DNA of 64,000 bases from Shigella phage ESh32: the sequence record ON528742. The stretch is one strand, 5' to 3'. Shown piece by piece: positions 10,103-64,000 of the stretch. The notes below the pieces were generated by a model. That model ran no database searches. It saw only the letters and a list, made by a program, of their open reading frames with translations, and was not told the origin of the DNA. The first letter of the stretch is position 1. Each line of letters starts with the position of its first letter. The position numbers and the translations under genes were made by a program.

Positions 10103-11530
10103 GTGGTAGAAATTATTCTTTCTCATCTCATATTTGATCAAGCTTATTTTTCAAAAGTTTGGCCATATATGGATTCAGAATATTTTGAAAGTGGTCCAGC
10201 TAAAAATACATTCAAATTAATTAAATCTCATGTTAATGAGTACCATAGCGTTCCATCTATTAATGCGTTAAATGTTGCATTAGAAAATAGTTCATTTACT
10301 GAAACAGAATATTCTGGTGTAAAAACACTTATTTCAAAACTAGTTGATTCTCCAGAAGATCACAGTTGGTTAGTAAAAGAAACTGAAAAATATGTTCAGC
10401 AACGAGCAATGTTTAATGCTACGTCTAAAATAATCGAAATTCAAACTAATGCTGAGCTTCCTCCGGAAAAACGAAATAAGAAAATGCCGGATGTTGGTGC
10501 TATTCCTGACATCATGCGTCAAGCATTATCAATTTCATTTGATAGCTACGTTGGTCATGATTGGATGGATGACTACGAAGCACGTTGGCTATCTTATATG
10601 AATAAAGCTCGTAAGGTTCCATTTAAACTCAGAATTCTAAACAAAATTACTAAAGGCGGAGCTGAGACTGGAACACTGAACGTTTTAATGGCTGGTGTTA
10701 ACGTTGGTAAATCATTAGGACTTTGTTCATTAGCAGCAGATTATTTGCAGCTTGGTCATAACGTTCTTTATATCTCCATGGAAATGGCAGAAGAAGTCTG
10801 TGCTAAGCGTATTGATGCTAATATGCTTGATGTTTCTCTTGATGACATTGATGATGGGCATATTTCTTACGCTGAGTATAAAGGAAAAATGGAAAAATGG
10901 CGTGAGAAATCTACTCTCGGTCGTTTAATCGTTAAACAATATCCTACTGGTGGAGCAGACGCTAATACATTCAGGTCTCTCTTGAATGAATTGAAGCTCA
11001 AAAAGAATTTTGTTCCAACAATCATTATTGTCGACTATCTAGGTATTTGTAAATCTTGCCGCATTAGAGTTTATTCAGAAAATAGTTACACAACTGTTAA
11101 AGCTATTGCAGAGGAATTACGTGCTCTGGCTGTTGAAACCGAAACCGTTCTTTGGACTGCAGCACAGGTTGGTAAACAAGCTTGGGACTCTTCCGATGTT
11201 AACATGAGCGATATTGCAGAATCTGCTGGTCTTCCAGCAACAGCTGATTTTATGCTTGCGGTCATTGAAACCGAGGAGCTAGCAGCTGCTGAACAACAAC
11301 TCATTAAGCAAATCAAATCACGATATGGCGATAAGAATAAGTGGAATAAGTTTTTGATGGGTGTTCAAAAAGGAAATCAGAAATGGGTAGAAATTGAACA
11401 AGATTCTACTCCAACCGAAGTGAACGAAGTAGCAGGTTCACAACAGATTCAGGCTGAGCAGAATCGCTATCAAAGAAATGAATCAGCTCGAGCTCAGTTA
11501 GATGCTTTGGCGAATGAATTAAAATTTTAG
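10103..11530 (+). CDS. 41: replicative DNA helicase gp41
   Basis: 475 aa, GTG start after AAGGAG; DnaB-like Walker A GVNVGKS. Confidence 0.95.
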   Translation: MVEIILSHLIFDQAYFSKVWPYMDSEYFESGPAKNTFKLIKSHVNEYHSVPSINALNVALENSSFTETEYSGVKTLISKLVDSPEDHSWLVKETEKYVQQRAMFNATSKIIEIQTNAELPPEKRNKKMPDVGAIPDIMRQALSISFDSYVGHDWMDDYEARWLSYMNKARKVPFKLRILNKITKGGAETGTLNVLMAGVNVGKSLGLCSLAADYLQLGHNVLYISMEMAEEVCAKRIDANMLDVSLDDIDDGHISYAEYKGKMEKWREKSTLGRLIVKQYPTGGADANTFRSLLNELKLKKNFVPTIIIVDYLGICKSCRIRVYSENSYTTVKAIAEELRALAVETETVLWTAAQVGKQAWDSSDVNMSDIAESAGLPATADFMLAVIETEELAAAEQQLIKQIKSRYGDKNKWNKFLMGVQKGNQKWVEIEQDSTPTEVNEVAGSQQIQAEQNRYQRNESARAQLDALANELKF

Positions 11531-11559
11531 TTTACAAGCTGACAAGACTATGGTATAGT
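11530..11559 (+). promoter_or_regulatory. early promoter (GTTTAC, 18 bp, TATAGT)
   Basis: consensus hexamers. Confidence 0.6.
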
Positions 11560-11587
11560 AGTCTTGTTGGTTAATGAGGAGATTGTT

Positions 11588-11770
11588 ATGGAATTGGTAA
11601 AGGTAGTTTTTATGGGGTGGTTTAAGAATGAAAGCATGTTTACTAAAGAAACCACAATGATGAAAGATGACGTTCAATGGGCTACTACTCAGTATGCTGA
11701 AGTTAATAAAGCATTAGTTAAAGCTTTCATTGATGACAAGAAAGTATGTGAAGTGGATTGCCGAGGATAA
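11588..11770 (+). CDS. dmd: Dmd antitoxin (inhibitor of RnlA/LsoA)
   Basis: 60 aa, position immediately after gene 41. Confidence 0.75.
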   Translation: MELVKVVFMGWFKNESMFTKETTMMKDDVQWATTQYAEVNKALVKAFIDDKKVCEVDCRG

Positions 11771-17811: not shown

Positions 17812-17841
17812 GTTTACTTTCCTTTCTAACGATGATATGAT
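17812..17841 (+). promoter_or_regulatory. early promoter (GTTTAC, 18 bp, TATGAT)
   Basis: consensus hexamers. Confidence 0.55.
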
Positions 17842-17867
17842 AGCTTCTGAAGTATACGGAGGCTATC

Positions 17868-18491
17868 ATGATTATTAATCCTGCAGATGTTGAACAGTTA
17901 TCTATAAAAGCTGAAAGCGTTGATTTTCAATATGATATGTATAAAAAAGTCTGTGAAAAATTTACTGACTTTGAGCAGTCTGTTCTTTGGCAATGTATGG
18001 AAGCCAAAAAGAATGAAGCTCTTCATCGGCAATTGAATAAAATCATTAAAAAGCATTTAACTAAATCACCTTATCAGTTATATCGCGGTATATCAAAATC
18101 GACAAAAGAACTTATTAAAGATTTACAAGTTGGAGAAGTGTTTTCAACGAACAGGGTAGATTCATTTACTACTAGTTTGCACACAGCATGTTCTTTTTCT
18201 TATGCTGAATATTTCACTGAAACAATACTTCGTTTAAAAACTGATAAAGCTTTTAATTACTCTGACCATATCAGCGATATTATACTTTCTTCTCCTAATA
18301 CTGAGTTTAAGTATACATATGAAGATACTGATGGGCTAGATTCAGAGCGTACTGATAACTTAATGATGATTGTGCATGAACAAGAATGGATGATTCCAAT
18401 TGGAAAGTATAGAATAACTTCTATTTCAAAAGAAAAATTACACGATTCATTTGGAACATTTAAAGTTTATGATATTGAGGTAGTTGAATGA
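17868..18491 (+). CDS. modB: ADP-ribosyltransferase ModB-like (207 aa)
   Basis: R-S-ExE motifs: YRGI, STN, EQEWMIP. Confidence 0.7.
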   Translation: MIINPADVEQLSIKAESVDFQYDMYKKVCEKFTDFEQSVLWQCMEAKKNEALHRQLNKIIKKHLTKSPYQLYRGISKSTKELIKDLQVGEVFSTNRVDSFTTSLHTACSFSYAEYFTETILRLKTDKAFNYSDHISDIILSSPNTEFKYTYEDTDGLDSERTDNLMMIVHEQEWMIPIGKYRITSISKEKLHDSFGTFKVYDIEVVE

Positions 18492-23011: not shown

Positions 23012-23041
23012 GTTTACTTCCTCGGTTAGTTGTGGTATTAT
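23012..23041 (+). promoter_or_regulatory. early promoter (GTTTAC, 18 bp, TATTAT)
   Basis: consensus hexamers. Confidence 0.6.
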
Positions 23042-23068
23042 AACACCATAGCTACTGAGGATAATAAA

Positions 23069-23581
23069 ATGAAAATTTATCGTGTTGAATCATCGTTTAG
23101 CGCATTAAATGATGATAGTGGTATAATGAAAATTAGGCAAGAGTTATGCGTCCAATCGACTCCTTATCGTGGATTTGATTCTATGAAAACTCGAACTTGG
23201 TTAAAATTTTGTGGTATTAATTCATCATCATTTCATCATCATAGCGATAATTATGAAAGCCATGAAAGTATTCCTATTCCACACGATGATAAGTTATTAG
23301 TTGAAAATGCTAATGATGTTATTAAAACTAAATGGAATAAAGATTATTCACGAATTGAAAATTATATTCCATTGTGGTTTATTGCATTATATCATTTTGC
23401 TTTCGCTAGTGAATATGATATGATGAGATGGTTCACTCGAGAAGAGCGTGAAGACTTAAAAGAACGTGGAATGTACATTGCGATTTATGAAGTGCCAGAT
23501 GACCAAGTTATCATTGGCGGACATCAAGTAATGTTCCGCAAATCGCATGCCGAATTAAAAGGCTTTATTACCTTAGATTAA
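23069..23581 (+). CDS. hypothetical protein (170 aa; motB-like position)
   Basis: ORF after early promoter. Confidence 0.5.
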   Translation: MKIYRVESSFSALNDDSGIMKIRQELCVQSTPYRGFDSMKTRTWLKFCGINSSSFHHHSDNYESHESIPIPHDDKLLVENANDVIKTKWNKDYSRIENYIPLWFIALYHFAFASEYDMMRWFTREEREDLKERGMYIAIYEVPDDQVIIGGHQVMFRKSHAELKGFITLD

Positions 23582-30639: not shown

Positions 30640-31578
30640 ATGTACAATATTAAATGCCTGACCAAAAACGAACAAGCTGAAATTGTTAAACTGTATTCAA
30701 GCGGTAATTATACTCAGCAGGAATTGGCTGATTGGCAAGGTGTATCGGTTGATACAATCCGTCGTGTTTTGAAAAATGCTGAAGAAGCTAAACGCTCTAA
30801 AGTTACTATTAGCGGTGATATTACAGTTAAAGTTAATAGCGATGCAGTTATTGCTCCAGTTACTAAATCTGACATTATTTGGAATGCATCTAAAAAATTC
30901 ATTTCGATTACTGTCGATGGTGTAACTTATAATGCAACACCTAATACTCATTCAAACTTCCAGGAAATTCTCAATCTGCTTGTAGCGGATAAGCTGGAAG
31001 AAGCGGCACAAAAAATTAATGTTCGTCGCGCTGTTGAAAAATATATTTCCGGCGATGTTCGAATTGAAGGTGGAAGCTTATTCTATCAAAATATTGAATT
31101 GCGGTCTGGTTTGGTTGATCGTATTCTTGATTCGATGGAAAAAGGCGAAAACTTTGAATTTTATTTTCCGTTCTTGGAAAATCTGCTGGAAAACCCAAGC
31201 CAGAAAGCGGTATCTCGACTTTTTGATTTCTTGGTAGCAAACGATATTGAAATTACAGAAGATGGTTACTTCTATGCTTGGAAAGTAGTTCGCAATAATT
31301 ACTTTGACTGTCACTCAAATACCTTTGATAACAGTCCTGGTAAAGTAGTTAAAATGCCGCGTACTCGTGTGAATGACGATGATACACAAACTTGTTCTCG
31401 TGGTCTGCATGTGTGTTCTAAATCTTATATTCGTCACTTCGGTGGTTCAACCAGCCGAGTTGTAAAAGTTAAAGTTCATCCTCGTGATGTAGTATCAATT
31501 CCGATTGATTACAACGACGCTAAAATGCGTACCTGCCAATACGAAGTAATTGAAGACGTTACTGAACAATTTAAATAA
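30640..31578 (+). CDS. rIIB: rIIB protein
   Basis: 312 aa; AAGGAAAATTATG start region. Confidence 0.9.
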   Translation: MYNIKCLTKNEQAEIVKLYSSGNYTQQELADWQGVSVDTIRRVLKNAEEAKRSKVTISGDITVKVNSDAVIAPVTKSDIIWNASKKFISITVDGVTYNATPNTHSNFQEILNLLVADKLEEAAQKINVRRAVEKYISGDVRIEGGSLFYQNIELRSGLVDRILDSMEKGENFEFYFPFLENLLENPSQKAVSRLFDFLVANDIEITEDGYFYAWKVVRNNYFDCHSNTFDNSPGKVVKMPRTRVNDDDTQTCSRGLHVCSKSYIRHFGGSTSRVVKVKVHPRDVVSIPIDYNDAKMRTCQYEVIEDVTEQFK

Positions 31579-31592
31579 GGGCTTCGGCCCTT
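31573..31592 (+). repeat. 20-bp direct repeat copy 1 with hairpin AAGGGCTTCGGCCCTT
   Basis: identical to 31801-31820. Confidence 0.8.
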
Positions 31593-31606
31593 AACTAAGG
31601 AAAATT

Positions 31607-31801
31607 ATGTTAGGTTATCAAGCACGAGTAAAAGAAGAATACGATCAATTAATGCTCAAAATTAATGCACTGAGCAAATTTTTAGAAAGCGCAAAGTTTC
31701 TAACGGTTAGTGCAGTTGAGCAAGAACTGCTGCTTTCACAGTTCATCTCAATGAAATCTTATGCTGAGTGTCTAGAGAAAAGAATCGCACAATTCAAATA
31801 A
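31607..31801 (+). CDS. hypothetical protein (64 aa) bracketed by identical hairpins
   Basis: ORF ends QFK-stop like rIIB. Confidence 0.5.
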   Translation: MLGYQARVKEEYDQLMLKINALSKFLESAKFLTVSAVEQELLLSQFISMKSYAECLEKRIAQFK

Positions 31802-31820
31802 AATAAGGGCTTCGGCCCTT
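31801..31820 (+). repeat. 20-bp direct repeat copy 2 with hairpin
   Basis: identical to 31573-31592. Confidence 0.8.
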
Positions 31821-31864
31821 TTGTTTTAAGAGAAATTATGATTCCGACATAAAGGAAAGTCTAA

Positions 31865-32422
31865 ATGCAGAAAACGAATCCAGGTTTACAGAGACTATTT
31901 CAGATTCCGTCATTTACCCTATCGAACGGTGACTTGACCAATGAAATGAAGGTCAAAATTGCTGATACTGCAAGATACTCTTTAAAACAAAACCCGAACC
32001 AGGATAAAGCAGAAGTTATCGAAAGATGCCGTATCGCTGTGTACGCAGAGTTTTTTGTGGCAGATTGGCTAAGCGGATATGTCAATAAAGGCCAAGAAAA
32101 TGTCGATGATCCGTACACGTATGCATGGGATGTTTTAGCGCATCCAAAATATTGCGGGCTTCGTGTAGAAGTCAAAACACATCAAACTGACTCGCGTTGG
32201 ATTTCGGTAACAACGGGATGCAGCGGAGAGTATCCATATGGTTCTGGAATAAATTTAGGGCCCATTCTAAATCATCAAGTCGCTGACTGTATAATTATAT
32301 TCAACACTAAAGAAATTCATCCAGGTGTCATCCAGTACACTCCGAAGTTCATCGGTGACAGAGAAGACCTTCGTAAGGTTGTAAGAAAAAGCAACTACAA
32401 CGGATGGTATCTTTCCATTTAA
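31865..32422 (+). CDS. denB: endonuclease IV DenB
   Basis: 185 aa; synteny after rIIB. Confidence 0.75.
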   Translation: MQKTNPGLQRLFQIPSFTLSNGDLTNEMKVKIADTARYSLKQNPNQDKAEVIERCRIAVYAEFFVADWLSGYVNKGQENVDDPYTYAWDVLAHPKYCGLRVEVKTHQTDSRWISVTTGCSGEYPYGSGINLGPILNHQVADCIIIFNTKEIHPGVIQYTPKFIGDREDLRKVVRKSNYNGWYLSI

Positions 32423-32438
32423 AAATTTTCACAAAACG

Positions 32439-32468
32439 GTTTACATACCACAAGGACTGTGGTAATAT
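32439..32468 (+). promoter_or_regulatory. early promoter (GTTTAC, 18 bp, TAATAT)
   Basis: consensus hexamers. Confidence 0.6.
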
Positions 32469-32502
32469 ACAACTATCAACTGATACGGATTTGGAGAATA
32501 AA

Positions 32503-32709
32503 ATGTTTACTACAGCTGAATTAAAACGAGCAAAAGCTAAGAAAGGGCAAGGAAAATATAAAGCTGAATTAGTTAAAGAACTTCAGTTTGCTGAGGCTGA
32601 ATTGAATTCAATGATTATTCAAAATGCTCCAGAAACTGAAATTGCTCTTAAACGTATTGCGAATAAGTGTCTTCGTGATGCAATCGTCGATCTTTTAGCG
32701 GATTATTGA
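32503..32709 (+). CDS. hypothetical protein (68 aa)
   Basis: ATG after conserved leader GGAGAATAAA. Confidence 0.5.
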   Translation: MFTTAELKRAKAKKGQGKYKAELVKELQFAEAELNSMIIQNAPETEIALKRIANKCLRDAIVDLLADY

Positions 32710-32820
32710 GTAAAATGAAAATCGTTGAGATTGAACTATGAGTTCATTATGGTGGTGTTTTGTTTGGTTAATTAGTATTCCATTAATTTGTTTAACATTT
32801 ACTTTTGTGATGAGGTTATT

Positions 32821-32919
32821 ATGAAAATTTTTAATTCTGTACTTATTGCTTGCGCGTGGTGGGTTGCGCAAGTTTCAGCGGTAGTAGTTGGTATTCACAT
32901 TTATTACGAATATTTTTAA
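32821..32919 (+). CDS. hydrophobic micro-ORF (32 aa)
   Basis: SD GAGG; TM-like. Confidence 0.35.
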   Translation: MKIFNSVLIACAWWVAQVSAVVVGIHIYYEYF

Positions 32920-32925
32920 AAAGTG

Positions 32926-32955
32926 GTTTACAAGACTGTTCCTCCGTGGTACTAT
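32926..32955 (+). promoter_or_regulatory. early promoter (GTTTAC, 18 bp, TACTAT)
   Basis: consensus hexamers. Confidence 0.6.
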
Positions 32956-32983
32956 TACCCTATCAACTACGGAGGAACAGAAA

Positions 32984-33097
32984 ATGAAAAAGATTATTAA
33001 AGCTATATGGAATGTAGTTATAATACTAATAGTTTTGAGTATATTCCCAATCGTTTTAATGATTGATGTATTAAACGTTTATTTTGGATTTATGTGA
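32984..33097 (+). CDS. hydrophobic micro-ORF (37 aa)
   Basis: SD GGAGG; TM-like. Confidence 0.4.
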   Translation: MKKIIKAIWNVVIILIVLSIFPIVLMIDVLNVYFGFM

Positions 33098-33104
33098 GGA
33101 AAAT

Positions 33105-33302
33105 ATGAAGCGTAAACGCAGTGCTTTTACATTTATTGAATGGTTTTTCGATAATATTTTTCCGGCTTTATTCATTTTCATGCTGATTTTTGCCTTAGGT
33201 TCAGTTGTAGTTGGAATCTATTTGATGGCGGTAGTCGGAATGGACATTCATCAAAATGGTTTAAAATCCGTAGTTGAAACAATTTGGAATGGTGTAAAAT
33301 GA
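33105..33302 (+). CDS. small membrane protein (65 aa)
   Basis: SD GAGGAAAA; TM-like. Confidence 0.45.
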   Translation: MKRKRSAFTFIEWFFDNIFPALFIFMLIFALGSVVVGIYLMAVVGMDIHQNGLKSVVETIWNGVK

Positions 33303-33409
33303 TGAATTTGCTGAGCGGTTGGTTTTATATTCTTATGTTTTACATTGGTGCAAATTTTCCATATTGGATGGGATGGTCAACAACTGCATTTGGGTTTTAT
33401 ACTCCCTGA
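33299..33409 (+). CDS. hydrophobic micro-ORF (36 aa)
   Basis: ATG overlapping previous stop. Confidence 0.35.
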   Translation: MMNLLSGWFYILMFYIGANFPYWMGWSTTAFGFYTP

Positions 33410-33417
33410 GGTGAATT

Positions 33418-33633
33418 ATGAAAATTTTTAAAGATGTAAAAGTTGGCGAAATTTTTTGCTTGAATAGTGGTGATCAGTTAATTCGTATTTCACCTCTTAA
33501 GAGCACCAGCGAGAAAATGACAGTTAACGCTACTTTAGCAAATAACAGTAATGAACGTTTCTGTATTGAAAATGATACTGAAACTTATACCGTAGAAGAA
33601 TTCTGGGAATTGAGCGTCGACTGCGACGAGTAA
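33418..33633 (+). CDS. hypothetical protein (71 aa)
   Basis: SD GAGGTGAATT-ATG. Confidence 0.5.
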   Translation: MKIFKDVKVGEIFCLNSGDQLIRISPLKSTSEKMTVNATLANNSNERFCIENDTETYTVEEFWELSVDCDE

Positions 33634-33693
33634 TTTAATGGCCGTGTGTATTCATGCGGCCTTGGAGTAGAAAATAATTTAGAGGAAATTAAT

Positions 33694-34152
33694 ATGAAAT
33701 ACATGACTGTTACTGATCTGAATAATGCAGGCGCTACTGTTATTGGCACAATCAAGGGCGGTGAATGGTTTTTGGGAACTCCGCATAAAGACATTTTATC
33801 TAAACCTGGATTTTACTTTTTAGTAAGTAAATTAGATGGTCGTCCATTTAGTAATCCATGTGTGTCTGCACGATTTTATGTAGGTAATCAGCGTTCTAAG
33901 CAAGGATTCAGTGCAGTTCTAAGTCATATTCGTCAACGTCGGTCTCAGCTTGCACGTACTATTGCAAATAACAATGTTCCATACACAGTATTTTATCTGC
34001 CTGCTTCTAAGATGAAACCTCTGACGACGGGATTTGGAAAAGGACAGTTAGCTTTAGCGTTTACTCGTAATCATCATTCTGAGTATCAAACACTTGAAGA
34101 AATGAACCGTATGTTGGCTGATAATTTTAAATTCGTTTTGCAGGCATATTAA
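33694..34152 (+). CDS. ndd: nucleoid disruption protein Ndd
   Basis: 152 aa; synteny. Confidence 0.75.
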
Positions 34153-34232
34153 TGAGTAATTTCCACAACGAACACGTGATGCAGTTCTATCGTAATAATC
34201 TTAAAACTAAAGGCGTCTTCGGACGCCAGTGA
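34152..34232 (+). CDS. stp: Stp peptide (26 aa)
   Basis: [26 protein letters not shown] recognised as T4 Stp. Confidence 0.8.
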
Positions 34233-34239
34233 GGAAAAT

Positions 34240-34398
34240 ATGAATATCGCAAAATTATTAGGAGTTATTTCATTTATTTGTTGGATAGTAGCATGTGTTT
34301 TAACTATCTGTATCGATGCCAGCAGCGTGTTTTCGCAAGCTTTAGCCCAGGGTATGTGTGCATATTTAACATTTGTGTTGTTATCTACTAATGATTAA
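34240..34398 (+). CDS. small membrane protein (52 aa; ac-like position)
   Basis: SD GAGGAAAA; TM-like. Confidence 0.5.
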   Translation: MNIAKLLGVISFICWIVACVLTICIDASSVFSQALAQGMCAYLTFVLLSTND

Positions 34399-34531
34399 GA
34401 AAATCTTGGGCTATTCATTAGCCCTTGCTACTTTATTGGTAGCACTATATTATGGAGTAATATTCGGATTAATTCAAGTCGTGCTTTTCATTTCTGATGT
34501 TATTATGGCACTACATTCACTAGTATGGTAA
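34391..34531 (+). CDS. hydrophobic micro-ORF (46 aa)
   Basis: overlapping start, TM-like. Confidence 0.4.
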   Translation: MIKKILGYSLALATLLVALYYGVIFGLIQVVLFISDVIMALHSLVW

Positions 34532-34535
34532 ATTT

Positions 34536-35864
34536 ATGCAACTGAATAATCGCGATTTAAAAAGTATCATTGATAATGAAGCATTGGCTTATGCTATGTA
34601 CACGGTTGAAAATCGTGCTATCCCAAATATGATTGATGGATTTAAGCCAGTTCAACGATTTGTTATTGCTCGAGCTCTTGATTTGGCACGAGGAAATAAA
34701 GATAAGTTTCACAAACTCGCTTCTATCGCAGGTGGTGTAGCGGACCTTGGATATCATCATGGCGAAAACTCTGCACAAGACGCAGGTGCTTTGATGGCTA
34801 ACACTTGGAATAATAACTTTCCTCTGTTAGATGGTCAAGGAAACTTCGGTTCTCGTACCGTTCAAAAAGCAGCGGCAAGTCGTTATATTTTTGCTCGTGT
34901 AAGTAAAAATTTCTATAACGTATATAAAGATACTGAGTATGCTCCGGTACATCAAGATAAAGAACACATTCCGCCTGCTTTCTATTTGCCTATTATTCCT
35001 ACTGTTCTTCTTAATGGCGTTTCCGGTATTGCAACTGGTTATGCAACTTACATTCTTCCTCATAGCGTTTCTTCTGTTAAGAAAGCTGTATTACAAGCTC
35101 TTCAAGGAAAGAAAGTAACTAAACCGAAGGTAGAATTCCCAGAATTTCGTGGTGAAGTCGTTGAAATTGATGGGCAATATGAAATTCGTGGAACATATAA
35201 GTTTACTTCACGAACTCAAATGCATATCACTGAGATTCCGTATAAGTATGATCGTGAAACTTATGTGAGTAAAATCTTAGACCCACTTGAAGATAAAGGC
35301 TTCATTACATGGGATGATGCTTGTGGTGAGCACGGCTTCGGCTTTAAAGTTAAATTCCGTAAAGAATATTCTTTGAGCGATAACGAAGAAGAACGCCATG
35401 CAAAAATTATGAAAGACTTTGGGTTGATTGAGCGTCGTTCTCAGAATATTACCGTCATTAATGAGAAAGGAAAGCTACAAGTTTACGATAACGTAGTTGA
35501 TTTAATTAAAGATTTCGTTGAAGTTCGTAAAACTTATGTCCAAAAACGAATTGATAACAAAATTAAAGAAACTGAGTCAGCTTTTCGTTTAGCCTTTGCC
35601 AAGGCACATTTCATTAAGAAAGTAATTTCAGGTGAAATTGTTGTACAGGGTAAAACTCGTAAAGAACTGACCGAAGAACTTTCGAAAATCGATATGTATT
35701 CTTCTTATGTTGATAAATTAGTTGGAATGAATATTTTTCATATGACTTCCGACGAAGCAAAGAAACTTGCTGAAGAAGCTAAAGCTAAAAAAGAAGAAAA
35801 CGAATATTGGAAAACTACTGATGTAGTTACTGAATACACCAAAGATTTAGAGGAAATCAAATGA
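34536..35864 (+). CDS. 52: topoisomerase II medium subunit gp52 (GyrA-like)
   Basis: 442 aa. Confidence 0.92.
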   Translation: MQLNNRDLKSIIDNEALAYAMYTVENRAIPNMIDGFKPVQRFVIARALDLARGNKDKFHKLASIAGGVADLGYHHGENSAQDAGALMANTWNNNFPLLDGQGNFGSRTVQKAAASRYIFARVSKNFYNVYKDTEYAPVHQDKEHIPPAFYLPIIPTVLLNGVSGIATGYATYILPHSVSSVKKAVLQALQGKKVTKPKVEFPEFRGEVVEIDGQYEIRGTYKFTSRTQMHITEIPYKYDRETYVSKILDPLEDKGFITWDDACGEHGFGFKVKFRKEYSLSDNEEERHAKIMKDFGLIERRSQNITVINEKGKLQVYDNVVDLIKDFVEVRKTYVQKRIDNKIKETESAFRLAFAKAHFIKKVISGEIVVQGKTRKELTEELSKIDMYSSYVDKLVGMNIFHMTSDEAKKLAEEAKAKKEENEYWKTTDVVTEYTKDLEEIK

Positions 35865-36010
35865 GTCCATTCATTGGTATTACAAGCGCTGCATTAGTAT
35901 CTGGTAGCATTTTACTGGCGGGTTTAGGCGTTGTTCCAGCCGTAGCAGGAGGTCTTCTTGCGTTCGGAATTCAACGTGTTATCATGACAGTTATCACAGT
36001 CATGCAGTAA
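35861..36010 (+). CDS. small membrane protein (49 aa)
   Basis: ATGA overlap with gp52 stop; followed by terminator. Confidence 0.45.
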   Translation: MSPFIGITSAALVSGSILLAGLGVVPAVAGGLLAFGIQRVIMTVITVMQ

Positions 36011-36066
36011 TTTTAGGGAGAGCCTCGGCTCTCCCTTTTTTATTTTAAAATTTTTTTCACAAAACG

Positions 36067-36096
36067 GTTTACAACCAAAGCATACTGTGGTACTAT
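36067..36096 (+). promoter_or_regulatory. early promoter (GTTTAC, 18 bp, TACTAT)
   Basis: consensus hexamers. Confidence 0.6.
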
Positions 36097-36137
36097 ACAA
36101 CTATCAACTACTGATACAGAATTACGGAGATTAGAAA

Positions 36138-36773
36138 ATGTCTAAAGTAACTTACATCATCAAAGCTTCTAACGATGTTCTGAATGAAAAAACTGCTGCG
36201 ATTTTAATTACTATTGCTAAGAAAGATTTCATTACAGCTGCAGAAGTTCGTGAGGTGCATCCATATTTAGGTAACGCAGTAGTTAATAGTAATATTGGGG
36301 TATTGATTAAAAAAGGCCTGGTGGAGAAATCTGGTGATGGATTAATCATTACAGGTGAAGCTCAGGATATTATTTCAAATGCAGCAACTTTATACGCACA
36401 GGAAAATGCTCCGGAACTGCTGAAAAAACGAGCAACTCGTAAAGCTCGTGAGATTACTTCCGATATGGAAGAAGATAAAGACCTCATGTTAAAACTTTTA
36501 GATGAAAATGGATTTGTTCTTAAAAAGGTTGAAACTTACCGCAGTAACTATCTCGCTATTTTAGAAAAACGTACTCACGGAATTCGTAATTTTGAAATTA
36601 ACAACAATGGAAATATGCGAATTTTTGGATACAAAATGATGGAACATCATATTCAGAAATTTACTGATATCGGAATGTCATGTAAAATCGCTAAAAACGG
36701 TAATGTGTATCTTGACATTAAACGCTCGGCAGAAAACATTGAAGCTGTAATCACTGTAGCATCTGAACTGTGA
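36138..36773 (+). CDS. motA: middle transcription activator MotA
   Basis: 211 aa, recognised sequence. Confidence 0.9.
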   Translation: MSKVTYIIKASNDVLNEKTAAILITIAKKDFITAAEVREVHPYLGNAVVNSNIGVLIKKGLVEKSGDGLIITGEAQDIISNAATLYAQENAPELLKKRATRKAREITSDMEEDKDLMLKLLDENGFVLKKVETYRSNYLAILEKRTHGIRNFEINNNGNMRIFGYKMMEHHIQKFTDIGMSCKIAKNGNVYLDIKRSAENIEAVITVASEL

Positions 36774-63785: not shown

Positions 63786-63815
63786 GTTTACAAGTCCCTC
63801 GTGTTGTGTTATAGT
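63786..63815 (+). promoter_or_regulatory. early promoter (GTTTAC, 18 bp, TATAGT)
   Basis: consensus hexamers. Confidence 0.6.
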
Positions 63816-63843
63816 AGTCTTACTGACATAACATGAGGACTTT

Positions 63844-64000
63844 ATGATGGATTTGCAGCTTATTACTACTGAAATGGTCGTTGAAGCATACGGTGATACT
63901 ACAGATGGGATTTCTGTATTCAAAGGAAATCGTCGAGTTGGATATATCACCGATCTTAAGAAAGATTTAGCTAAGCAAGTCAAGCGGAAAACGACCATTA
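63844..64000 (+). CDS. 5' part of ORF running off window (alc-like position)
   Basis: ATG after early promoter; open to window end. Confidence 0.4.
   Translation, partial: MMDLQLITTEMVVEAYGDTTDGISVFKGNRRVGYITDLKKDLAKQVKRKTTI

Follow-up and report, generated by a model that had tools for sequence, protein, structure and literature searches.

The denB-52 early region of Shigella phage ESh32: known T4 micro-genes, predicted inner-membrane peptides and a possible translational gate at ndd.4

Introduction

The Stp peptide of bacteriophage T4 binds the type IC restriction complex EcoprrI and blocks DNA restriction, by which the PrrC tRNA-Lys anticodon nuclease is unmasked; the activity resides in the N-terminal 18 residues, and loss-of-function mutations cluster at residues 4-14 (PMC3014915). 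T4 counters PrrC with Pnk and Rnl1. The stp gene lies between denB and gene 52, among a series of micro-genes whose T4 transcripts all belong to the early class. Mass spectrometry of T4 detected Ndd and Ndd.1 as early proteins and none of the micro-proteins, and we found no ribosome profiling of T4 infection in the literature. The T4 sa-delta-9 deletion of the whole region is viable and abolishes the T4-induced stimulation of phospholipid synthesis; it also removes denB and ndd.

Two further systems bear on this region. In T4 gene e and I-TevI, a leader hairpin was shown to block translation by sequestering the ribosome-binding site in long transcripts. The Escherichia coli protein AcrZ, of 49 aa, resides in the inner membrane and binds AcrB. 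T4 Ac sensitises infected cells to acriflavine and has been proposed in a preprint to block the AcrAB-TolC efflux pump (bioRxiv 10.1101/2025.06.30.662393).

Results and Discussion

The denB-52 interval is collinear with that of T4

We analysed a window of 64,000 nucleotides from phage ESh32 (ON528742); positions are those of the window, and every feature described here lies on the + strand. The window is Tequatrovirus DNA, 97.5-98.9% identical to phages PP01 and ESh25 across the denB-52 interval, and at least 80% of the region is covered in 493 phage records. The gene order is that of T4: denB, ndd.6, ndd.5, ndd.4, ndd.3/2a, ndd.2, ndd.1, ndd, stp, ac, 52.1 and 52. The upstream boundary is denB, the endonuclease IV gene (31865-32422), whose 185-aa product is 98% identical to T4 and PP01 DenB and which is named denB in collinear records; the downstream boundary is gene 52, for the topoisomerase II medium subunit (34536-35864), which has no Shine-Dalgarno (SD) sequence of its own. 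The nucleoid disruption gene ndd (33694-34152; 152 aa, 98-99% identical to T4 and PP01 Ndd) is the one constant gene of the interval, being found in 37 of the 38 intervals compared, the window included. It is preceded by ndd.1 (33418-33633), which encodes a soluble protein of 71 aa (phrog_2183, E = 3e-37; pN/pS 0.09), and a GC-rich 9-bp hairpin without a U tract separates the two genes (33640-33661; z = -2.65 for the 71-nt segment). Rfam, searched at gathering thresholds, returned no RNA family in the whole window.

An initial annotation of this DNA had listed, besides Stp, a cluster of hydrophobic micro-ORFs that it took for a membrane-targeted accessory module. The seven ORFs that it named are all present at 32821-32919, 32984-33097, 33105-33302, 33299-33409, 34152-34232, 34240-34398 and 34391-34531; all of them are already annotated in T4 and belong to a PHROG or Pfam family. 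Since the micro-ORFs are ndd.2-ndd.5, ac and 52.1, genes already named in T4 that the annotation did not recognise as such, their finding is not new. The content of Stp and the cluster is already known, and the membrane micro-genes are real but ordinary; because annotated T4 genes were rediscovered, the main value of the comparison is a clean negative, namely that no new claim is needed for Stp or the cluster. What we see is probably the classical early region from denB to gene 52, known as the 'sa' deletion region, with T4 genes that would encode independent early inner-membrane micro-proteins and, among them, a gated ndd.4.

The micro-genes lie on one strand, chained by overlapping stops and starts, behind early-type promoters assigned by consensus (32440 and 32927), and neither MotA boxes nor late promoters turned up on the + strand in a scan of 31500-36200. 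The overlaps reported initially are real: ATGA at ndd.6/ndd.5, ATGATG/TGA at 33299, TAATG at ndd/stp and 8 nt at ac/52.1. The accompanying statement that every ORF has a ribosome-binding site went too far, as stp and 52.1 (and also ndd.6) have no SD and ndd.2 has only a weak GGTG; the start codons of ndd.6, stp and 52.1 overlap the preceding ORF.

Genes upstream of ndd.4

The first gene after denB is orf68 (32503-32709), which encodes a soluble protein of 68 aa (phrog_4535, E = 4e-24). A consensus scan placed an early-type sigma-70 promoter before it (32440-32468; GTTTACA and a TG-extended TAATAT), for which no spacer-to-SD hairpin was detected (z = -0.28). The gene is present in PP01 and T2 and is missing from T4 at a clean indel; the slot is variable, as other Tequatroviruses carry an 87-aa ORF instead, or both. 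An 8-codon mini-ORF, MKIVEIEL (32715-32741), is the 3' remnant of that 87-aa ORF, and likely acts as a coupling leader for ndd.6, whose start its stop overlaps (ATGA).

The initial annotation missed ndd.6 (32738-32824), a gene of 28 codons with one predicted transmembrane (TM) segment (phrog_8851, E = 3e-17; Kyte-Doolittle maximum 2.31; pN/pS 0.15) and homologues in other genera. It is followed by ndd.5 (32821-32919), of 32 aa and likewise with one TM segment (phrog_5011, E = 9e-26; pN/pS 0.10), in which the variable sites are distributed 2/1/10 over the three codon positions.

Stp is identical to that of T4

The 26-aa stp gene (34152-34232) begins within the stop codon of ndd. Its product matches PF08133 over positions 1-26 of 26 (E = 2e-21; 75.3 bits against a cut-off of 25) and also phrog_6763, and it is 100% identical to T4 Stp, including the N-terminal 18 residues, which are invariant. 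The position, after ndd and before ac, is also that of T4, with no detectable difference, so the initial call of Stp was right. The exact sequence is common to 15 of 18 Tequatroviruses. From the 100% sequence identity we infer that ESh32 Stp would inhibit EcoprrI/EcoR124I and activate PrrC. The peptide is hydrophilic and soluble by Kyte-Doolittle, and a PDB sequence search returned nothing meaningful for it.

Codons 21-25 of stp contain a C(UUCG)G tetraloop hairpin, GGCGUC-UUCG-GACGCC (34212-34227; z = -3.1), situated just 5' of the ac SD. The hairpin is kept with G-U wobbles in two other loci (L007 and L052), whereas Stp of T2 and fFiEco06 has a different C-terminal tail without the embedded CUUCGG hairpin. 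A link between the membrane ORFs and Stp/PrrC was considered and rejected, the distributions being discordant across 37 T4-like loci.

Ac and 52.1

The ac gene (34240-34398; phrog_2501, E = 4e-25), between stp and 52.1, encodes 52 aa with two hydrophobic segments. Its product is 96% identical to T4 Ac, which is encoded at the same position with the same 8-nt overlap with 52.1; T4 Ac has 51 aa, and the ESh32 protein carries an extra Thr near the C-terminus, an allele found in 10 of 18 Tequatroviruses. Judged by this match, the gene is recognisable as the acriflavine-sensitivity gene ac, the phenotype being known from T4. AcrZ resembles Ac in size and membrane character and offers an obvious analogy for the proposed action on AcrAB-TolC; unlike AcrZ, which tunes the pump, Ac is proposed to inhibit it. 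No PDB chain matched Ac even at E = 10. In phage KIT03 the ac slot is filled by a different family, of 53 aa.

The 46-aa product of 52.1 (34391-34531), also with two hydrophobic segments, matches PF24129 (DUF7396) over positions 1-46 of 46 (81.3 bits against 27). The gene ends 4 nt before gene 52. It is present in 30 of the 38 intervals, immediately 5' of gene 52 in 30 of 30, and its product is still 91-93% identical where gp52 is 81% identical.

The leader of ndd.4 contains a conserved hairpin that overlaps a predicted promoter

The 37-aa product of ndd.4 (32984-33097) has N-terminal lysines followed by one TM segment (phrog_3098, E = 5e-21; Kyte-Doolittle maximum 3.06), and its family occurs in 24 of the 38 intervals. 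In T4 the gene is annotated as 42 aa from an ATG that lies inside the SD and that ESh32 lacks. A consensus scan identified an early-type promoter at 32927-32955, with the -35 element TTTACA at 32927-32932 and a TG-extended -10 element TACTAT at 32950-32955, and the same GTTTACA / TG-n-TAnnAT layout precedes ndd.4 homologues in all lineages.

A 15-bp hairpin (32936-32980) overlaps this promoter: its 5' arm (32936-32950) comes from the promoter spacer, and the 3' arm (32966-32980) holds the ndd.4 SD, GGAGG (32971-32975). The calculated free energy is -25.4 kcal/mol (z = -5.8), and 0 of 200 shuffled sequences were equally stable. Among 25 unique ndd.4 leaders, 24 have their GGAG base-paired. Because column-wise MAFFT alignment of the leaders failed to bring the helices of the different lineages into register, pairs were anchored on GGAG and an arm-swap permutation test was used. 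Across lineages, several Watson-Crick pair types were found at 8 flanking positions of the helix, and cognate arms paired at -16.5 kcal/mol versus -8.7 kcal/mol for swapped arms (p = 5e-5). At least six T4-like lineages thus preserve the helix through covarying pairs.

With the promoter placed by consensus match, the -10 element ends at 32955 and the 5' arm at 32950, and in every lineage but one the predicted start site falls downstream of the 5' arm. The hairpin probably confines translation of ndd.4 to the start of infection. If the ndd.4 ribosome-binding site is base-paired with sequence from the spacer of the gene's own promoter, as the promoter and start predicted from the consensus suggest, only transcripts begun at the ndd.4 promoter would be translatable, and upstream read-through would not. 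Translation would then be restricted to the gene's own immediate-early transcript, with none from the abundant read-through (delayed-early) RNA, and the outcome would be a brief burst of a small membrane peptide that limits itself. The ndd.4 leader shares with T4 gene e and I-TevI a helix that contains the SD, and transcripts from the proximal promoter are predicted to lack the 5' arm. Gene e and I-TevI, however, embed a late promoter (TATAAATA), whereas ndd.4 embeds one of the early sigma-70 type with no late motif, so that the predicted effect is 'immediate-early only' and not 'late only'. An early-promoter version of the sequestering hairpin is not described in two reviews of T4. We tentatively put forward the possibility, itself open to considerable doubt, that the ndd.4 leader is an undescribed use of a known T4 trick, in which the hairpin that masks the ribosome-binding site has an early promoter nested within it. 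Other early promoters of the phage (23012, 63786 and 17812) show the same promoter/hairpin layout, so that 'immediate-early-only' gates could form a general class. With ndd.4 we have a simple, testable case of a way in which phages might keep the production of a potentially toxic membrane peptide to the opening minutes of infection.

One could envisage instead that the inverted repeat is an element of RNA stability or RegB protection, or a feature of the promoter DNA, with no translational gate. Consistent with this, RegB cleaves GGAG in early leaders and secondary structure gives protection from it, stable intergenic hairpins are numerous in T4, and other early promoters of the window have spacers of like sequence (CTGTTCTTCCATGG), so that part of the ndd.4 complementarity may stem from the promoter consensus. 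Against it, the SD is part of the helix in every case, and the 5' arm precedes the predicted start in all lineages but one; the stem sequences are wholly different between lineages while their complementarity is kept; and the layout is that of the translation-blocking hairpins of gene e and I-TevI. We regard this alternative as unlikely.

Function of the hydrophobic micro-proteins

TM segments were called from the best 19-residue Kyte-Doolittle mean, a crude scale. By this measure ndd.6, ndd.5, ndd.4, ndd.3-2a, ac and 52.1 reach maxima of 2.2-3.1 and carry N-terminal K/R. The initial prediction of a TM segment in each ORF failed for ndd.2 (33299-33409), an aromatic-rich gene of 36 codons (phrog_4135, E = 2e-24; pN/pS 0.12) with a best mean of 1.17. 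Membrane targeting is plausible for six of the seven hydrophobic ORFs, in line with their long-standing T4 annotation as predicted membrane proteins; for ndd.2, membrane association is plausible though the protein falls below the TM threshold. Within the window, 29% of the ATG ORFs of 22-80 aa on the + strand and 15% of those on the - strand pass the same crude test. Hydropathy as a stand-alone statistic was rejected on account of this high base rate in an AT-rich genome, and because of it hydrophobicity alone is weak evidence.

The interval holds small TM ORFs in 36 of 36 comparison loci that have ndd. The membrane ORFs of denB-52 look like a pool of independent early inner-membrane peptides. 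We predict that synthesis of the hydrophobic micro-proteins begins within minutes of infection and that they enter the inner membrane of the host; most of them have a basic N-terminus followed by one or two helices. Each peptide would act alone, its target being some function of the host envelope, for instance efflux, permeability or lipid synthesis, and perhaps also envelope-linked exclusion or defence; the genes would be interchangeable accessories and not the subunits of one machine.

A narrower version of this explanation holds that the peptides act chiefly in counter-defence or superinfection exclusion, each neutralising or triggering one membrane-associated immunity system of the host or a prophage. 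Their neighbours all interact with the host (rIIA/rIIB against prophage exclusion, denB, ndd, and stp against type IC restriction), the genes are dispensable on laboratory strains, and the families turn over like cassettes from one phage to another of different host, as is typical of arms-race accessory genes; 52.1 and ndd.4, however, are too widely and strongly conserved for typical fast-evolving anti-defence genes. The papers that we found give no defence-related phenotype for the membrane peptides, and the phenotypes that are documented are dye sensitivity and lipid synthesis. This narrower view seems to us rather improbable.

The initial proposal of a module is supported only partly. Were the hydrophobic micro-proteins to function together as one complex or pathway, possibly with Stp, tight packing, a common strand, early transcription and overlapping stops and starts that suggest coupled translation would be readily understood, as would the conserved gene order where families co-occur and the loss of the membrane-lipid phenotype through a single regional deletion. 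Against this, the families are present or absent independently in 37 T4-like loci, so that their co-occurrence across relatives does not bear out a functional unit. Among the 38 intervals compared, ndd.5 is found only in Tequatrovirus; ndd.3-2a occurs without ndd.2 and vice versa; the slot after ndd carries differing combinations of the Ac, F1, F3 and 52.1 families; and Stp, present in just 11 of the 38 intervals when the window is counted, is absent from most loci that keep membrane ORFs. Natural nonsense alleles of ac and ndd.3-2a occur in the T2 reference, where the other members are intact, and KIT03 has its replacement in the ac slot. A single co-functioning module is accordingly very improbable, and we retain the reading of independent peptides.

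The micro-ORFs are conserved as reading frames

Conservation of the frames in related phages, which the initial annotation had proposed as a check, was found, with homologues in 37 T4-like loci. Among 18 Tequatroviruses, pN/pS was 0.07-0.15 for ndd.6, ndd.5, ndd.3-2a, ndd.2 and stp and 0.30-0.34 for 52.1 and ac. The ratio of 1.24 for ndd.4 is uninformative, because there are only 5 variable sites and almost no synonymous variation (pS 0.014 within Tequatrovirus). Variable sites cluster at third codon positions (for example 3/5/22 by position in the 65-aa ORF), and the reading frames are intact in 15-18 of the 18 genomes. Homologous families extend to T4-like loci in which gp52 identity is as low as 61%, and in other genera, where the DNA has diverged, the protein homologues are 40-60% identical. 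By these comparative measures the micro-ORFs, with the ratio of ndd.4 set aside, are real protein-coding genes under purifying selection, and the initial view that they are not noise was correct. That they are chance open frames in T-rich DNA, annotated by habit, might be argued from the 15-29% of the window's short ORFs that are TM-like by hydropathy, from the failure of mass spectrometry to detect any micro-protein and from the several ORFs without SD, but this is already effectively refuted by the conservation data (pN/pS well below 1 with third-position variation, intact frames, homologous proteins amid diverged DNA) together with full-length Pfam and PHROG family matches, and has next to no probability.

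The 65-aa ORF (33105-33302; phrog_2401; pN/pS 0.07) represents the intact form of T4 ndd.3 plus ndd.2a. Residues 6-63 match positions 4-57 of the 58 in PF23906 (DUF7248; 71.9 bits against a cut-off of 27), and the protein has a basic N-terminus, a hydrophobic core and a conserved C-terminal tail, DGLKSVVETIWNG; a PDB sequence search gave nothing meaningful. The T4 locus is the same and is 98% identical in the shared frame. The T4 reference NC_000866 has a 1-nt deletion at ndd.3, one G being missing after ATGAA, and the two-gene annotation ndd.3/ndd.2a results from it; the resequenced T4 genome MT984581 has an intact CDS of 198 nt. A single 65-aa ORF is present in 16 of 18 Tequatroviruses, T4 MT984581 included, and the DUF7248 homologues of other genera have 64-71 aa. 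The ndd.3/ndd.2a pair of the T4 reference should be annotated as one gene of 65 codons.

The comparative data provide firm evidence for tiny genes that automatic annotation routinely drops. Several phage records omit stp, ndd.6 or 52.1.

Gene content of the denB-52 interval

The initial annotation placed Stp among hydrophobic micro-ORFs between denB and gene 52, and this observation is confirmed. By megablast, positions 32400-34600 were 97.5% identical to Escherichia phage PP01, with 559 phage records matching; in a more sensitive search, Shigella phage ESh25 matched at 98.9% identity, and at least 80% of the cluster was covered by 493 records. The window is collinear with the annotated PP01 and T4 records. 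A three-way alignment of these sequences identified denB (31865-32422), a 68-aa ORF not found in T4 (32503-32709), ndd.6 (32738-32824), ndd.5 (32821-32919), ndd.4 (32984-33097), a single ORF for ndd.3/ndd.2a (33105-33302), ndd.2 (33299-33409), ndd.1 (33418-33633), ndd (33694-34152), stp (34152-34232), ac (34240-34398), 52.1 (34391-34531) and gene 52 (34536-35864). Given this collinearity, all of the ORFs listed earlier exist and are named T4 genes; the list left out ndd.6. The micro-gene cluster is therefore not new but already known in T4.

The slot between denB and ndd.6 (32503-32741) is variable: it holds the 68-aa ORF (phrog_4535) in ESh32, PP01 and T2, is empty in T4, and in other phages carries an 87-aa ORF (phrog_2390) or both ORFs. 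Eight codons of the 87-aa ORF, MKIVEIEL (32715-32741), remain in the window with an ATGA overlap at the ndd.6 start; this remnant may act as a leader that couples translation to ndd.6, which lacks a Shine-Dalgarno (SD) sequence. Downstream of the cluster, the 49-aa TM micro-ORF motA.1 (T4 name; within 35861-36036) has an ATGA overlap with the gene 52 stop. Beyond it lie a strong intrinsic terminator (36015-36036) and, ahead of motA, an early-type promoter (36068-36096). In many Tequatrovirus genomes automatic annotation misses stp, ndd.6, ndd.5 or 52.1, or assigns spurious labels to micro-genes, among them 'naphthalene 1,2-dioxygenase', 'baseplate wedge subunit' and 'outer membrane protein' (phage records L044, L047 and L049-L053).

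Identity of Stp

The 26-codon ORF was correctly recognized as Stp, as its product is identical to the T4 peptide and matches Pfam PF08133 over its full length (E 2e-21). Stp is necessary and sufficient for activation of the latent PrrC anticodon nuclease; it targets the type IC restriction complex EcoprrI, inhibiting DNA restriction, and likewise inhibits EcoR124I (PMC3014915). The N-terminal 18 residues, which are required for activity (PMC3014915), are invariant in the window peptide. Exactly this peptide is encoded by 15 of 18 Tequatrovirus sequences, and the T2 and fFiEco06 variants share its N-terminus but have a different C-terminal tail. Beyond Tequatrovirus, stp was found only in some loci of a lineage with approximately 81% gp52 identity.

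A C(UUCG)G tetraloop hairpin (34212-34227) lies within stp codons 21-25 (G-V-F-G-R), directly 5' of the ac ribosome-binding site. It is retained, with G-U wobbles, in distant stp genes and is missing from the T2/fFiEco06 variant with the altered C-terminus; thus, the conserved tail may partly reflect an RNA constraint.

Evidence that the micro-ORFs are genes

Hydrophobicity by itself is weak evidence for genes, because a crude TM test was passed by 29% (plus strand) and 15% (minus strand) of the 22-80 aa ORFs in this AT-rich window. The evolutionary evidence is strong. In an alignment of the window with 17 other Tequatrovirus sequences, pN/pS was 0.15 for ndd.6, 0.10 for ndd.5, 0.07 for the 65-aa ORF (ndd.3-2a), 0.12 for ndd.2, 0.09 for ndd.1, 0.10 for ndd, 0.09 for stp, 0.30 for 52.1 and 0.34 for ac, the last inflated by one replaced allele; the value for ndd.4 (1.24) is uninformative because it rests on five variable sites. 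Most variable sites were third positions of codons (2/1/10, 3/5/22 and 4/3/15, for instance), every ORF matched a PHROG family, and full-length Pfam matches were obtained for the 65-aa ORF (DUF7248) and 52.1 (DUF7396). The frames are thus conserved in relatives, with homologous families across T4-like loci, which bears out the earlier view that the cluster is not noise. In T4 omics data, transcripts of all these genes are of the early class, and two of the products, Ndd and Ndd.1, were seen as early proteins; the micro-proteins were undetected by mass spectrometry (PMC9697503, Table S2), as is to be expected of peptides so small and hydrophobic.

Across ndd.4 and the beginning of the 65-aa gene (33000-33160), synonymous sites vary very little (pS 0.014 versus 0.15-0.27 in neighbouring genes), which could reflect a recent sweep, recombination or nucleotide-level constraint.

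Membrane segments and expression signals

Kyte-Doolittle hydropathy assigned a single clear TM segment each to ndd.6, ndd.5 and ndd.4, a KRKR N-terminus followed by a long hydrophobic core to the 65-aa protein, and two hydrophobic segments each to Ac and 52.1. The aromatic-rich ndd.2 product fell below the TM threshold, and Stp, ndd.1 and the 68-aa ORF are hydrophilic. An SD sequence precedes ndd.5, ndd.4, the 65-aa ORF, ndd.1, ndd and ac; none was found for ndd.6, stp and 52.1, and ndd.2 has only a weak GGTG. The initial annotation had credited every listed ORF with both features, which is true of ndd.5, ndd.4, the 65-aa ORF and ac; 52.1 has the TM prediction without an SD sequence, and ndd.2 falls short on both. 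The starts of ndd.6, stp, 52.1 and ndd.2 overlap the preceding ORFs, which points to translational coupling. A consensus scan found two early-type promoters (GTTTACA, 17 nt, TG-extended -10) at 32440-32468 and 32927-32955, and a motif scan of the region detected no MotA box or late promoter motif on the gene-cluster strand.

Nucleotide diversity among the 18 Tequatroviruses is near zero at 34455-34544 (the 3' half of 52.1 and the gene 52 start). Gene 52 has no SD sequence and starts 4 nt past the 52.1 stop, and 52.1 keeps 91-93% identity in a lineage whose gp52 is just 81% identical. These features suggest that gene 52 is coupled to 52.1 or that recombination occurred recently. Between ndd.1 and ndd, a GC-rich hairpin of 9 bp that has no U tract (33640-33661) may act in RNA processing or stability.

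Probably independent accessory genes rather than one module

An IMG/VR search with gp52 gave 41 loci (gp52 identity 47-100%), 37 of which have denB as well as gene 52; ndd is present in 36, and in each of these the interval consists of ndd and small TM ORFs. ORF families, obtained by BLAST clustering followed by HMM merging, form a shared pool of ndd.6, ndd.4, ndd.3-2a, ndd.2, Ac, 52.1 and families not in the window (three, including F1, of 57-72 aa and located after ndd, and F3, of approximately 53 aa). Their order is consistent and their presence varies independently across loci. The most constant is 52.1, found in 30 of 38 intervals (window counted) and in every case directly 5' of gene 52; ndd.5 and Stp have narrow distributions. 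In KIT03 (NC_054923), the ac slot is occupied by a 53-aa TM ORF of the F3 family, and in the T2 reference (LC348380) nonsense codons interrupt ac at codon 11 and the 65-aa gene at codon 33, which indicates cassette-like exchange at the slot. The KIT03 ac-slot family adjoins 52.1 in other genera.

The proposed membrane-targeted accessory module was half right. The ORFs are real, probably membrane-located accessory genes; their independent presence speaks against a single multi-subunit module, and nothing in the family distribution ties the membrane ORFs to Stp. The pattern fits independent accessory genes in a plastic region.

The T4 deletion sa-delta-9, spanning 52.1 through denB, is viable with a burst size of about half, and phospholipid synthesis, that of phosphatidylglycerol in particular, is no longer stimulated by the infecting T4 (PMC6071114). 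Functional Ac renders infection sensitive to acriflavine, and its loss confers resistance (bioRxiv 10.1101/2025.06.30.662393; cited in PMC13250531). Escherichia coli expressing ac is sensitized to acriflavine and ampicillin, and Ac was proposed to insert into the membrane and block AcrAB-TolC; the same preprint describes three clusters of predicted membrane-protein genes in T4, with ac in one of them (bioRxiv 10.1101/2025.06.30.662393), so the cluster itself is established knowledge. We infer, as the best explanation, that the micro-genes would encode early-made inner-membrane peptides, each acting independently on some host envelope function.

A single 65-aa gene in place of ndd.3 and ndd.2a

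T4 NC_000866 is annotated with two genes, ndd.3 and ndd.2a, whereas the window has one 65-aa DUF7248 gene. The three-way alignment showed that one G is missing from NC_000866 after ATGAA at the ORF start, and the annotation is split for this reason into a 26-aa out-of-frame ndd.3 and an ndd.2a with an internal start. The frame is intact in the window, PP01, resequenced T4 (MT984581, annotated as a 198-nt CDS) and 16 of 18 Tequatroviruses. The motif DGLKS-V-ETIWNG at the C-terminus is common to the homologues from other genera, which are 64-71 aa long. This correction is a modest addition.

A promoter-embedded hairpin upstream of ndd.4

The ndd.5-ndd.4 spacer folds into a helix of 15 bp without mismatch, in which 32936-32950 pairs with 32966-32980 (-25.4 kcal/mol, z -5.8). 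Its 3' arm contains the ndd.4 SD sequence, and its 5' arm lies within the spacer of the early-type promoter at 32927-32955. Transcripts from this promoter, with a start predicted near 32962, would not include the 5' arm and could be translated; in upstream read-through transcripts the ribosome-binding site would be sequestered. The layout recurs in 24 of 25 distinct leaders of ndd.4 homologues from at least six lineages, with wholly different stem sequences. With the leaders anchored on GGAG, eight flanking positions were paired in several Watson-Crick combinations, z was -3.7 or lower in five of eight lineage representatives, and swapping arms between promoter/SD pairs weakened the mean from -16.5 (cognate) to -8.7 kcal/mol (permutation p = 5e-5). 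The hairpin is conserved by compensatory changes in at least six T4-like lineages.

The same design is documented for T4 gene e and I-TevI (PMC3014915), but there the embedded promoter is late, whereas that of ndd.4 is early-type; ndd.4 is thus likely translated only from the proximal immediate-early transcript, given the predicted start site. Such an early gate is unmentioned in the T4 reviews consulted, PMC3014915 among them, and we regard it as a modest addition. At 11530-11592, a helix spans the -10 element and not the SD sequence. Spacer-to-SD helices were absent at the promoters at 32439 and 36067 in the same-window test, and similar ones were found at the early-type promoters at 23012 (23012-23072, z -5.2), 63786 (63786-63848, z -5.5) and 17812 (17812-17872, z -3.6), which suggests that T4-type early promoters use this design repeatedly.
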